Positions 7,021-60,687 of a stretch of 64,000 nt of DNA are shown piece after piece. The position numbers were made by a program, and so were the translations under genes. The notes beneath the pieces were generated by a model. That model was not told the DNA's origin, did not search any database, and worked only from the letters and a program-made list of their open reading frames with translations. Position 1 is the first letter of the stretch; every line of letters starts with the position of its first letter. The stretch covers positions 7,314 to 71,313 of the IMG/VR virus record IMGVR_UViG_3300015195_000005; one strand, written 5' to 3'. Source of the stretch: a virus.

Positions 7021-7529
7021 CAGTAACCTATCGTGTCCCAAGCAAGATAAGCCCTGTCGATGTGACTGACATCCCAAAGCTGGTTGTACAGGTTAAGAGA
7101 ATTGTCATCGTAGACACGTGCCGTCATACCAGCAGTACGGACTGCTCCTGCGAATGCTGCTATCTCTATATCTGCTCTGGCTTGCCACAGATGGGCTACC
7201 TTCTGGGCCGCAGCAGAGGCTTGGGAGAACTTCTTTTGAGCCCCTATGCCATCATTACGGTCCACCATAACGGCATAAGCGCCAGCCTTTATCATCCACC
7301 CTGTCGCAGCAGCAACTGTGATGAAGTTGTTGGACCGATTGAGTATCTCTACGATGTGGCCGTTCAGGAACAAGGTATCCGAATCGGAGCCACTGGGCGG
7401 GATAACTTCTTGCAAAAGCAACCGAAGATACTGACTATTGCTTTCTGTAACGTCACCAGGAGCCTCAACCTCAGGGGCTTGAGGGGTCCAAATCTCTTCA
7501 GGACTCAAACTAAGGTCTGGTGCAGGCAC
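7020..7529 (-). CDS. Head-tail connector (gp15/gp6-like)
   Basis: LRLLLQE...D...F...I helical pattern, downstream of the capsid gene. Confidence 0.65.
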   Translation of the reverse strand: MPAPDLSLSPEEIWTPQAPEVEAPGDVTESNSQYLRLLLQEVIPPSGSDSDTLFLNGHIVEILNRSNNFITVAAATGWMIKAGAYAVMVDRNDGIGAQKKFSQASAAAQKVAHLWQARADIEIAAFAGAVRTAGMTARVYDDNSLNLYNQLWDVSHIDRAYLAWDTIGY

Positions 7530-56994: not shown

Positions 56995-57459
56995 GTGAGC
57001 ACAGTTACACTGACATTCAACGGTACTGCCGGTGAGATTGCCGACATCTTGGATAAGGTCCAAGGCACGACAGTCACCAAGGTCACCACAACCAAGACCA
57101 AGGCCCCCAAAGTTTCGGAAACCGAAGAGGTTGAAGATACCGAGGAGGACGAAGAGGTCGTCTGGACCGAGAGGAAGCTGGAGGGCAAGTCGTTTGGTGA
57201 ACTCAAAACCATAGCCAAGGGTCTTGACATCGACATCGAGGGCAAACGCTCGGCAGGGCTCAAGAAGGCCATCCTTGAAGCCTCAAAGCCCGAGGAAGAG
57301 GACGAAGAGGAGGAAGAGGAGAGCGAGGACGACGATTGGGAGGAGGAGGAGGAGGAAGAGGAGGAAGAGGAGGAAGAGGAGCCTCCTGCCCGTAAGCGCC
57401 CAGCTAAGAGGGCCGTTGCTGCCAAGAAGGCGCCAGCAAGAAGGCGCAGGGCTTCATAG
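56995..57459 (+). CDS. Acidic protein with Rho-N/HeH domain, poly-Glu tract and basic tail
   Basis: RBS AGGAG; LEGKSFGELKTIAKGLDI...LKKAILE; long E/D run; C-terminal ARKRPAKRAVAAKKAPARRRRAS. Confidence 0.75.
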   Translation: MSTVTLTFNGTAGEIADILDKVQGTTVTKVTTTKTKAPKVSETEEVEDTEEDEEVVWTERKLEGKSFGELKTIAKGLDIDIEGKRSAGLKKAILEASKPEEEDEEEEEESEDDDWEEEEEEEEEEEEEEPPARKRPAKRAVAAKKAPARRRRAS

Positions 57460-57497: not shown

Positions 57498-57534
57498 AGA
57501 GAGGGTCGGACTTCCCGAGGGTCCGACCCTCTCT
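57498..57534 (+). terminator. 14-bp perfect hairpin terminator
   Basis: AGAGAGGGTCGGAC-N9-GTCCGACCCTCTCT. Confidence 0.8.
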
Positions 57535-57606
57535 TCATGTCCCGTATCATAAGGGTCTATAAGGCCGTATAACAGAAGGGTTTGGAATGATACCCAGTGA
57601 TGCCAA

Positions 57607-60600
57607 ATGACGATGTTGCCCCGAGTGGAGTTGCATCTTCATTAGCTGCATACAGACTTCTCTCTGTTGGATGGGCTAGGAAAGATACCCGCTTATGTAG
57701 AGCGGGCCAAGAGGCTGAACATTGCCGCTCTTGCGATCACAGATCACGGGACGATGGGCGGGGTGTTTGAGCACTACCGCACCTGTAGAGATGCGGACAT
57801 AGAGCCCATCATCGGGTTGGAAGCATACTTCGTACCTTCGGTTTCCGAAGCCCGTCAGTTCAAGAACGCCGAGCGGTTCCATGTGACCCTGCTTGCCAAG
57901 GGCGAGCAAGGATACCGAGTATTGAATGAGTTGAATACTGCCGCTCATAGCAACTTCTACTACAAGCCCTTAGTGGATCGTGCTCTGTTGGGGCAACTTG
58001 GAGAAGATGCTCAGCACCTTGTATGCCTGTCTGGTTGTACTGGTTCCAAGATAAGCCAACTGTGGATAGCACAAGATCCCACTTATGTTGACGAGATACA
58101 GTGGTGGCAATCTATTTTCCACCGGAACTTCTATCTTGAAGCCCAGTACCACAGCATAGATACCGACCAACTTGTCCTGGGTGGTATCTTGGAGACTCAG
58201 AGCCACACCAGGCTCAAGCATGTCTTTACCAACGATTGCCATTATGTCTCCAAACGAGATGGAGCCCCGCATGATGCGCTACTTGCCATCCAGACTGCTG
58301 CAAACATTGACGATCCCGACCGCTTTAGGTTTGACGGCAGCGGCTATCACCTGCGCAGTCGCCGTGAGCTATACAGAGTGGTTGTTGAAGCAGGCTACGA
58401 CCCAAGATGGGTTAAGAACGGCATTGAGAATTCCCTTAGTATCGCCCGTAGTTGTCATACACGGATCGCAGAGTGGGAAACACGGACTTGGCACATACCG
58501 CAGTATCCCGGCGCTAAAGATCCTGAGCGATTGCTCGTCAAGCTCGTTCGCACCGCTTTGGACGAACGAGGACTCTCGCAAGACCTTAGATATGTTCGAC
58601 GGGCCAAGCACGAAATAAGACAGATCAAAAAGGTTGGAATAGCTGACTTCCTACTTATCTGTAGGGAGCAGAATAGATGGTGTGCCACTCGCCCTAAGCC
58701 AATACGGGTGGGACCGGGCCGTGGCAGCGTGGCCGGTTCCCTCATAGGGTGGCTCATAGGGATGCACAAGATCGACCCTATCCGTCATAACACCCGCTTT
58801 GAGCGGTTCATAAATCCTGAGCGCCCCAAGATGCCTGATGTGGACACCGACTTCCAACCGTCCAGGCGTGATGAGGTTATCGAGCACCTGAAGCACCTGT
58901 ACGGAGCCGACAACGTGATCCAGGTTGCGGCCTATCAGACGATGGGGGTAAAGGGCACTTTCCGAAAGTTAGCCAGGGCACACGGCATGGACTGGAATGA
59001 GATCAACCGTATCTCTACCAAGCTGAATCCAGGGGGTACAGACGAGGACACCGACGACATATCTGTGTTACCTGCTGAAGTTCGAGAGAACTACCCTGAC
59101 ATACATGCTCAGATCCAAGCCCTGATCGGTACCAAGTCTGCACTGTCCTCACACGCCGCTGGACTGCTCATCTTCGCCCCTGACGACCCTGTGAAGGATC
59201 TTGTGCCGCAGATGTGGCTGACGGGTCAGAAACGCCTTGTAGCGGCCTTCGATCTGAAGTCCACCGAAAAGATGGGCCTGATGAAGATGGATGAGTTGGT
59301 GCTCCGCACCCTGGACACCATTCAGGTCTGCGTAGACATGCTTTCGGAAAACGGGATCGAGATAGAGCCTGACGACTGGATACCGGACGAGGAGGATAGG
59401 GACTCCGATGTGTATGCGATGCTTGGCAGCGGGAGGACCGCTGGAGTTTTCCAAATGGAAGGTAATACCAACACTAGAGGCATCCAAGAAGTCGGTTGCC
59501 GCTACTTCGAGGACATCGTTGCCACAACTAGCCTCTACCGAGCCGGTCCCTTGGGTGCGGGTGCCGCGACTCGTTATCTCGCCAACAAACGATCCAAAAA
59601 GATCAGAGTTGCACATGAATCCCTTAGACCCATCCTGGCTAATTCATGGGGGGAGATGATCTATCAGGAACAGATGATGGATATATGCCATGACATAGCA
59701 GGATTCAACTGGACAGATACCGATGATGTCAAGGAAATAGTCCGATTTAAAGACCCGGCAAGGATGCACGCTTACCGGCAGAAGTTTGTGGACGGATGTA
59801 AAAATCACTCAGAGTTGGATGAGAATACGGCCTTGGAGATATGGGCCATGATAGAGAGCCAGTCCTCATATCTTTTCAATCGTAGTCATGCTATAGCTTA
59901 CTCATACTTGAGCTATCAAACAGCACGGCTCAAGTATCTGTACCCGGTGGAGTACATGGCAGCGTACATGGCCACAGTAGATGCAGATACAGACGCCCAC
60001 AAGGCCAACCGCAACAAGGTGCTCAGCGAGGCGCATGAGATGGGCGTACATATCCTAGCCCCTGACATAAATCAATCGGGAATCCACATGACCTGTTGTG
60101 CAGACGACCAGAGGATAGGGCTCGTTAGGGGGCCGTGGATGAGATTTGGGTTTGTAGACCTGAAGGGCATAGGAGAGTCCAAGGCAGCCAAGCTGGTAAC
60201 TGCCAGGGACCAAGATCCTGTGGGCTTCTACGGGGTTCAGGACGTGGCTGAGGCCATAGACAAGCGCACTCTGGGCATCTTGGGAGACAGCGGGGCTCTG
60301 GCTTCTGTAGGCGGCCCCAAGGTCACCACACGCCAGATAGAGCAGTACATAGATTGGGATTTCTCAGATCGCATGGCCAAGTACCGACCCCAACTGCGCT
60401 CTCAGGTAAAGTTCCCCACCAAAGAAGGTCAGTGGGGGCAAGTGGCAGGGGAACTGATAGCCAGTGAATCACGTATGACCAAGAAGAACACGCACTTCAG
60501 AGTGTGGACTCTAAAGTGGTCACCTTCTGAAACTTTTAGAATCACGCTATGGGACAGCACATCAGGTATTTGGGACACGCCTATAGGCAGTATCCTGGCA

Positions 60601-60687
60601 GTAGAAGGCAAGTACAGCAGGGAGTTTGACAACATAGGAGTATCCGACCCAGATTATGTGACTGTGATAGCAAGGAGAAAGAGATGA
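57607..60687 (+). CDS. dnaE: DNA polymerase III alpha (DnaE); in-frame TAG at 57643-57645 in the PHP motif
   Basis: SLLDG, ITDHG, GLEAY, TNDCHY, GRGSVAGSL, FERF.NPER...PDVDTD, FNRSHA..YS, OB tail. The upstream in-frame text MTMLPRVELHLH*LHTDF continues the conserved motif. Confidence 0.93.

Follow-up and report, generated by a model that had tools for sequence, protein, structure and literature searches.

A candidate natural stop-hop in a phage dnaE gene interrupted within its first metal-binding motif

Introduction

How can a DNA polymerase be made from a gene that carries a stop codon in the middle of a conserved motif? The question is raised by the dnaE gene in a 64,000-nucleotide (nt) stretch of DNA from a soil phage, positions 7,314 to 71,313 of the IMG/VR record IMGVR_UViG_3300015195_000005, which we call the window. 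It is part of a viral contig of 78,350 bp from a metagenome assembly with a completeness rating of 81%. In this gene a TAG codon splits the H-x-H motif at the beginning of the PHP domain, and identical CAT codons stand before the stop and shortly behind it. A first-pass annotation of the DNA proposed that the ribosome leaves the first CAT, passes over the stop and lands on the second. Natural translational bypassing is known from very few systems, namely T4 gene 60 and its homologues, the byp elements of yeast mitochondria and, as a candidate, a terminase gene of a Streptomyces phage. According to a 2016 review, stop-hops were known from synthetic constructs only and none in frame from nature (PMC5009743), and our literature search found no published description of bypassing in dnaE.

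Comparison with related loci makes it probable, in our judgement, that a CAU-to-CAU hop yields full-length DnaE from the window, and we rate a hop somewhat higher for the family as a whole than for the window alone. We are less certain that the insert in this genome owes its origin to immunity against an endonuclease.

Results

Interruption of the dnaE frame in the window

In the frame of dnaE the gene reads ATG (57607) ACG ATG TTG CCC CGA GTG GAG TTG CAT (57634) CTT CAT (57640-42) TAG (57643-45) and, after the stop, CTG CAT (57649-51) ACA (57652) GAC TTC TCT CTG TTG (57667) GAT GGG, with ATG 57613 as an alternative start of the 5' segment. Direct reading found the TAG-interrupted frame, the Shine-Dalgarno (SD)-like AGAAGGG, the upstream open reading frame (uORF) and its ATGA overlap with the dnaE start all as first described (Table 1). 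The open reading frame (ORF) called by program starts only at TTG 57667, has 1006 aa and ends at TGA 60685-87. Conserved motifs of the PHP domain carry metal ligands, and the first of them, H-x-H, spans the TAG. It is complete only when the 5' segment is joined to the body, so that a start behind the stop does lose it, as the first-pass annotation had argued. The window DnaE has the domains PHP (Pfam E = 3.6e-36), pol3-alpha (E = 1.2e-53), finger and HHH, and alignment to Thermus aquaticus Pol III alpha (2hpi) showed that the PHP motifs LLDG, TDHG, GLE, FHV, SGC and NDCHY are kept.

The intact relative L354 (protein P0003), which is 65% identical to the window, has no counterpart of 9 nt in the alignment, and the 5' segment of the window is homologous to its native N-terminus (MALPRAELHLH). 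The insert is taken here as 57643-51; it can also be written as CTT CAT TAG, 57637-45. Where the window is interrupted, L354 carries the unbroken MALPRAELHLHTDFSLLDG, which equals the predicted hop product.

The insert is genuine. A separate run from 2025, which was not the source of the contig, contains a 72-nt piece over 57594-57665 with 0 gaps and 4 mismatches, the only listed one away from the ends being 57624 A>C, a synonymous change; the TAG itself is probably retained there. Since this second run is gapless over 57594-57665, the 9 nt are no artefact of this assembly. An assembly error and a one-off mutant isolate, both considered at first, also fail because the H-x-H motif is interrupted in 23 further loci, which places the site far beyond chance.

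Interrupted dnaE loci in related phages

Alignment of the dnaE 5' ends of relatives for a codon-stop-x-codon insert, a check that the first-pass annotation had proposed, gave 24 interrupted phage loci (22 distinct) in two clades and from separate metagenomes. All of them carry an insert of 5-9 nt in the same five-codon H-x-H stretch, with no break elsewhere in the gene, and all 24 inserts open with TAG or TGA directly 3' of a His or Leu codon. When the insert is skipped, the canonical motif is restored in every locus. The site has thus been struck recurrently.

Clade 1 consists of the window and the loci L003, L012, L020, L098, L099, L101 and L104, and its bodies are open for about 1000 codons. 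Clade 2 was found by pattern scans of IMG/VR and has the N-terminus (V/M)(K/E)IVG(F/Y)EHLHLH; in 16 of 16 retrieved loci the stop follows directly after the second His, and then comes the gap. A 595-kb phage that is 54% identical to clade 2 (LR756511.1) has the unbroken MANEIVGLEHLHLHTEQGSLLDG, the predicted gap-skipped product. Two sets of 80 DnaE loci served as controls. In the more distant metagenomic set 78 were intact, and in the cellular set (30-35% identity) 78 fitted the intact-motif pattern, the other two being L245 and L246. IMG/VR searches with P0085, P0086 and P0098 returned distant or uninformative loci only. Among GenBank phages, blastn gave no relative, the best tblastn matches had 31-33% identity, and no cultured phage with an interrupted dnaE was found.

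About one quarter of 120 homologues were called as starting 'MLDG...', exactly past the motif. These starts were considered as extra interruptions. Where the upstream DNA was read, L004, L005, L100, L102 and L103 turned out to be intact with a miscalled start, and the seven clade-1 relatives of Table 1 to be interrupted in the manner of the window. The intact clade-1 genes P0006, P0010, P0014, P0020 and P0027 are likewise called from the inner Met of S-M-L-D-G, and H-x-H is lost from the prediction. Because of such miscalled inner-Met starts, protein databases under-report H-x-H and mask the difference between intact and interrupted genes.

Evidence for the proposed ribosomal hop

The features of the site fit a hop. 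A slow or unreadable A-site codon adjoins the putative take-off codon, TAG 57643-45 after CAT 57640-42 in the window and TAG or TGA at this place in all 24 loci. Within CAT TAG CTG CAT (57640-51) identical in-frame codons flank the stop, as they do in synthetic stop-hops, where 9 nt thereby encode one residue. Close relatives have inserts of 5, 6, 7, 8 and 9 nt, which produce all three frame relations; since those of 5, 7 and 8 nt change the frame, read-through cannot explain the family. A single kind of jump, in which the tRNA leaves the take-off codon and settles on the triplet just 5' of the resume codon, would produce the canonical motif in every locus.

We formulated a landing rule, by which the tRNA would land on the first downstream triplet that pairs at positions 2 and 3 (NAY for tRNA-His) or on CUN for tRNA-Leu. 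The rule is kept in 16 of the 22 distinct loci; with shuffled inserts the mean was 3.3 and the maximum 11 (20,000 trials). In the window the first NAY triplet 3' of the take-off codon is CAT 57649-51, a perfect landing case from CAT to CAT.

Clade 2 provides evidence from coding constraint. In the frame of the mini-ORF, pairwise differences were synonymous in 113 and non-synonymous in 74 cases, counted over the six codons outside the search pattern, and in the other two frames the same codons gave 2/182 and 0/167. These mostly synonymous differences indicate that selection acts at the protein level on the upstream piece of clade 2, and that it does so in a frame which the body does not use. 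Most clade-2 bodies lack a start codon close to the junction, and several have no ATG, GTG or TTG within more than 30 codons after the junction, and for want of a nearby start codon such a body cannot be started on its own.

From these comparisons we infer the hop, its efficiency and its function in immunity, and propose the following course. Ribosomes would initiate at ATG 57607, possibly coupled to the uORF, and make MTMLPRVELHLH. A pause would follow, at which CAU 57640-42 holds the peptidyl-tRNA-His and the A site is occupied by UAG, with C as the next base. In a fraction of the ribosomes the tRNA would release, the mRNA would slide by 9 nt and the tRNA would re-pair at CAU 57649-51. Decoding would restart at ACA 57652 and give ...VELHLH-TDFSLLDG..., the motif as in intact relatives, with VELHLHTDFSLLDGLGK as the junction peptide of the hop product.

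A possible hairpin between the start and take-off regions

In clade 2 the start region (GCAG GUG AAG AU) and the region before the gap (AU CUU CAC CUG C) can form a 12-bp stem, and the last base of the 3' arm is the first base of the take-off codon. Over 11 distinct sequences, 99.4% of the cells were paired, compared with 36-51% when the partners were slid. Two pairs are compensatory, GUG/CAC changing to AUG/CAU and CAG/CUG to CAA/UUG. The 3' arm is largely set by the search pattern, and the 5' arm and the covarying positions are free of it. Comparable duplexes occur in L101 (-19.6 kcal/mol), L104 (-16.0) and L003 (-14.6), and intact loci average -6.3 kcal/mol. On the model of the 5' stem-loop of gene 60, the stem could refold behind the ribosome and pull the mRNA forward; it could equally act as a control on initiation instead.

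Homing endonucleases and the proposed origin of the inserts

Of the 7 interrupted clade-1 loci with readable upstream DNA, 5 have a homing endonuclease gene immediately before dnaE, as against 0 of 12 intact loci (Fisher test ~0.002, for taxa that are non-independent). The enzymes of L003 and L020 belong to one HNH type and those of L101 and L104 to another; L012 has a fragment, an apparent remnant in the form of a 97-aa ORF (1139-1429) that matches part of the homing-endonuclease family phrog_314 (E = 5e-8). The DNA of L104 is 77% identical to that of L353, its intact sister. A 555-nt block of L104 (1931-2485), with the HNH gene and a new start of dnaE that includes TAGCTT, takes the place of 26 nt in L353; the two sequences become homologous again precisely at the codon for the second His.

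We suggest that in related phages these nucleases, sitting directly upstream of dnaE, travel as a cassette together with a new, interrupted 5' end of the gene. The inserts would alter the DNA of a highly conserved target and leave the protein unchanged, and dnaE would thereby be protected from HNH homing endonucleases. For the translational throttle on replication that the first-pass annotation had suggested as a purpose we found no evidence; the data point to homing-endonuclease immunity instead.

Compared with L354, the window keeps the native N-terminus (MTMLPRVELH versus MALPRAELH) and the same upstream gene, and has 9 extra nt. A search for HNH remnants in its intergenic region and uORF gave only noise. 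Its insert may have arisen in place under nuclease pressure from co-infecting relatives, or a cassette may have been lost without trace.

HNH-type ORFs also lie just downstream of intact dnaE genes (L102:5482-5949 and L005:4825-5145), so endonucleases occupy the other end of the gene as well, without a 5' interruption.

Points against the hop and rival explanations

Several observations weigh against the hop or its proposed origin. The hop is a prediction from sequence comparison, and the related sequences are non-independent, so that the statistics overstate the number of events. The landing rule is broken in 6 of the 22 loci (L099, L286, L288, L311, L323 and L337). In the window itself the insert is in frame, and its own sequence is compatible with a read-through product HLH-X-LH-T. 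The pairing of AUGACGAUG with CAUCUUCAU in the window reaches -8.2 kcal/mol, no better than shuffles (fraction 0.22), for which reason we do not claim the start/take-off hairpin for the window; the RNA fold of 57580-57720 gave a z-score of -0.72, with no significant structure. The 8 interrupted clade-1 taxa lie scattered over a tree of 115 DnaE homologues, which requires 7 changes of state, and each interrupted clade-1 gene has a close intact sister. The clade-1 inserts are therefore recent, repeated events, and since they are young, the upstream motif kept in the lineage of the window says little on selection. No endonuclease or recognisable remnant was found within 1.5 kb upstream in the window. 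A peptidyl-tRNA with 12 residues is prone to drop-off and to release by release factor 1 (RF1), and the synthetic E. coli stop-hops of Weiss et al. from 1987 reportedly run at about the per-cent level.

The rival that survives best, unlikely as we take it to be, is a truncated DnaE that starts downstream, at TTG 57667 or CTG 57646, with no H-x-H strand, a crippled PHP exonuclease and 12 codons as a leftover. Gene callers put the start at TTG 57667, start codons lie near the junction in some loci (GTG in L020 and L012, ATG five codons on in L003), and since the clade-1 inserts are young, an upstream motif could persist there unselected. E. coli DnaE functions with a degenerate PHP site. However, TTG 57667 is preceded by no SD, and the gene retains every other conserved PHP motif. 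Interruption is fixed in clade 2, and there the upstream piece shows the pattern of change of a coding sequence, with many bodies lacking a start for more than 30 codons. Truncation also offers no reason for an in-frame stop at the head of every insert, nor for the triplet able to re-pair with which most inserts close.

Read-through, in which a near-cognate tRNA would decode TAG in its weak UAG-C context and give VELHLH-X-LH-TDFS with three extra residues in the first PHP-barrel strand, appears improbable to us, because the 5-, 7- and 8-nt inserts in both clades are beyond its rescue. No intact homologue examined carries extra residues in the motif. A tRNA gene search of the whole 78-kb record found none, and hence no suppressor tRNA. 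In the window TAG is a normal stop, as the first-pass annotation had stated: it ends 9 of the 49 listed ORFs of at least 150 aa, including the gene just upstream of dnaE. What speaks for read-through is that the insert is in frame in the window, L003, L020, L099, L104 and L286, that HMMER aligns HLHxLHT to HLHQ-HT of the Taq enzyme with one extra residue only, and that in-frame stops of prokaryotic genes have been so interpreted (PMC7918605). A reassignment of TAG as a sense codon was ruled out, since TAG ends ordinary ORFs, there is no tRNA gene and the relatives need changes of frame.

More doubtful still is termination followed by re-initiation, which would make the 12-residue peptide and the shortened body as separate products, the peptide perhaps supplying the H-x-H strand in trans. 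The mini-ORF is short, re-initiation after short ORFs is common, and in L020 and L012 a GTG stands directly after the stop in the frame of the body; in most loci, however, no start codon stands at the resume codon or close to it, and re-pairing landing triplets would have no explanation. We know of no precedent for a 12-residue strand that complements a PHP barrel.

A dead gene, a defective genome or a sequencing artefact is hardly credible: the DNA is a metagenome assembly, 81% complete, without a known cultured relative (GenBank phage matches are 31-33% identical), but the second run is gapless across the 9 nt, the 1011-codon body is open, and 23 other loci from different samples and assemblers have the same break at the same place only. 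We give just as little credence to removal of the insert at the RNA level (micro-intron or editing) or to a programmed +1/-1 frameshift that keeps some insert residues; sequence alone is blind to the level of skipping, and in frame-changing loci the open frame of the body extends for a few codons to the 5' side of the junction, but removal from the RNA would work without the in-frame stop with which every insert opens, CAT TAG has no slippery heptamer or homopolymer, close relatives would require 0, +1 and -1 shifts at one site, and no Rfam family matches.

Comparison with known systems

The closest parallel to the proposed hop is T4 gene 60/MobA (Huang 1988; Bonocora 2011; Manning & Atkins, bioRxiv 10.1101/2022.08.31.505936). 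There, a single mobile element inserted in a metal-binding motif comprises both endonuclease and bypass, self-cleavage is prevented by the insert with the protein unchanged, and most insertions are recent, some genomes having lost the nuclease and kept the bypass (bioRxiv 10.1101/2022.08.31.505936). As in gene 60, the stop in dnaE directly follows the take-off codon, the landing codon fits the same tRNA, and the insert lies within a conserved metal-binding motif of a replication enzyme. In the dnaE relatives, too, the insert moves with an endonuclease gene and a new gene end, and the insertions are mostly recent. On the other hand, the dnaE gap measures 5-9 nt instead of 50 and leaves no room for a gap hairpin or SD, and the nascent chain has 10-14 residues (12 in the window), so that the nascent-peptide signal of gene 60 cannot apply. 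The gene is dnaE, the nuclease is of HNH_3 type, and nothing here is homologous in sequence to the gene 60 cassette. An adjacent endonuclease occurs in L003, L020, L101 and L104, with an apparent remnant in L012, whereas the window has no adjacent endonuclease.

Among synthetic E. coli stop-hops (Weiss, Dunn, Atkins & Gesteland 1987, via PMC5009743), similar sites have a slow-to-decode A site as the trigger; their counterparts here are CAU UAG CUG CAU in the window, CUA UAG CUA in L003 and CUU UAG CUU in L104. Unlike these engineered sites, those of dnaE are natural, recurrent and fixed in clade 2, and the family includes frame-changing hops of 5, 7 and 8 nt and near-cognate landing triplets.

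In the terminase genes g6/g7 of Streptomyces phage phiHau3, UUA-mediated bypassing was described and the junction peptide shown in E. coli (PMC10732093). Like dnaE, this is a phage gene that needs a short bypass, for which mRNA structure and a landing codon were proposed; it differs in its trigger, a rare sense codon tied to the developmental state of the host, in encoding a terminase and in having no link to an endonuclease (PMC10732093). The byp elements in the mitochondria of Magnusiomyces capitatus (Lang 2014 and Nosek 2015, as cited in PMC5009743) resemble the dnaE inserts as many short, apparently mobile coding inserts that ribosomes skip in 'corrective' recoding. Unlike the dnaE inserts, they are mitochondrial and spread over many genes and not concentrated in one motif. 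The byps are reportedly some 27-55 nt long.

A 2021 survey read conserved in-frame stops of prokaryotes as read-through, excluded frameshifted genes and has no mention of dnaE, hopping or bypassing (PMC7918605). Its cases share with the window an in-frame stop in an otherwise intact conserved gene, but the frame-changing dnaE inserts rule out read-through for the family.

We are evenly divided on the full proposal suggested by these comparisons: that phage dnaE genes contain widespread natural programmed stop-hops of 5-9 nt at the first PHP metal-binding motif, created by or spread with HNH homing-endonuclease cassettes as cleavage-immunity inserts, landing on the first triplet with position-2/3 pairing and aided by a hairpin of the start and take-off regions that draws the mRNA forward, and that they match T4 gene 60/MobA in minimal form and independently of it and are the first stop-hops from nature. 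If the hop is true, it is a mode of reading without prior natural report at such short range. The roughly two dozen natural sites would be a ready mutational series for the minimal rules of hopping, with 5-9-nt gaps, varied take-off codons and near-cognate landings. The cassettes would be a second, independent case of a homing endonuclease and a bypass insert as one mobile unit, in support of the view that bypassing evolves to break a nuclease target while an essential protein stays unchanged. For annotation, gene callers truncate the interrupted polymerases, which leads to mis-annotation and possibly to pseudogene labels in phage and metagenome catalogues.

Other features of the locus and its relatives

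Table 1 Features of the window around the dnaE start, and inserts (in square brackets) of the interrupted relatives.
Feature	Position in window	Strand	Remarks
Upstream gene phrog_3724, function unknown	56995..57459	+	no endonuclease; ends in TAG
SD-like AGAAGGG	57574..57580	+	ahead of 7-codon uORF; read from sequence
7-codon uORF MIPSDAK*	57587..57610	+	ATG 57587; TGA 57608-10 overlaps dnaE ATG 57607 as ATGA
dnaE 5' segment, 12 codons, MTMLPRVELHLH	57607..57642	+	ends in putative take-off codon CAT 57640-42
Possible 5' arm AUGACGAUG	57607..57615	+	8/9 pairs with 57634-42
Possible 3' arm CAUCUUCAU	57634..57642	+	ends in putative take-off codon
9-nt coding gap TAG CTG CAT	57643..57651	+	stop 57643-45; predicted landing codon CAT 57649-51
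dnaE body	57652..60687	+	predicted to resume at ACA 57652 (TDFSLLDG...); 1011 codons; TGA 60685-87
L003			CAT CTA [TAGCTA] CAC ACC; insert 6 nt
L104			CAT CTT [TAGCTT] CAC GTC CAC; insert 6 nt
L099			CAT [TAGCGA] ACC; insert 6 nt
L012			CAT [TAGCTAC] GTG CAC; insert 7 nt
L101			CAT [TAGGTAC] GTT CAT; insert 7 nt
L098			CAT [TAGTTAAT] CTC CAC; insert 8 nt
L020			CAT CTT [TGAGTGCTA] CAT ACG; insert 9 nt
Clade-2 gaps			TGAAT, TAGCTT, TAGCTAT, TGACCAT, TAGCTAAC, TAGCTGAC, TAGTTCTT, TAGTTTAC, TAGGTCAA, TAGCCGTC, TAGTTAAC

The gene family phrog_3724 also precedes dnaE in the intact relative L354. A leader like CAGAAAGG...GGTGATGCCAAATGA is present in the interrupted relative L098. The final 14 nt of the uORF are common to the window and L098, and the shared GTGATGCCAAATGA is missing in L354. 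Since L098 shares GTGATGCCAAATGA, translational coupling of dnaE to the 7-codon uORF is plausible. An upstream ORF overlaps the dnaE start as ATGA in L104 (2444-2447), L020 (1432-1435) and the window (57607-57610); in L104 and L020 this ORF is an HNH gene, and in the window it is the 7-codon uORF. These shared overlaps suggest that the polymerase is translationally coupled to whatever lies upstream.

On the 3' side of the upstream gene, at 57498-57534, the window has a perfect 14-bp inverted repeat, AGAGAGGGTCGGAC ... GTCCGACCCTCTCT, which is terminator-like with a weak T run. This repeat caused a match to an Rfam miRNA (E = 0.38), which we regard as chance; the Rfam search at the interrupted site matched no family. 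A further candidate was Rhodococcus phage Dorin, in which an 'endonuclease VII' gene and the DnaE match overlap; its dnaE is intact.

In loci that depart from the landing rule, the tRNA would have to land on CTT (twice), CAA, GTC or CGA. In L311 an earlier in-frame GAC stands before CAT, and in L337 a perfect CAC sits 2 nt out of register. In L012 (1380-1500) the upstream piece (..SRLVHLH*) has no ATG, GTG or TTG over 38 codons, and the body frame has an ATG and a GTG 16-17 codons upstream.

In clade 2 the polymerase is encoded by two genes with about 2 kb between them, and the break falls within the pol3-alpha domain (L284:7105-8403 and L284:10393-12870; also L257:9700-11040). The N-terminal part of 433-457 aa contains PHP and positions 2-100 of the pol3-alpha profile, and the second ORF of 826 aa contains pol3-alpha positions 97-259 together with finger and HHH, an arrangement that resembles 'fractured genes' with split inteins (PMC2677866). 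In addition, the clade-1 homologues P0033, P0035, P0045, P0067 and P0080 have 1270-1370 aa and carry intein domains (PF14890, and PF13403 in one), which makes dnaE a target of intein-borne mobile elements too.

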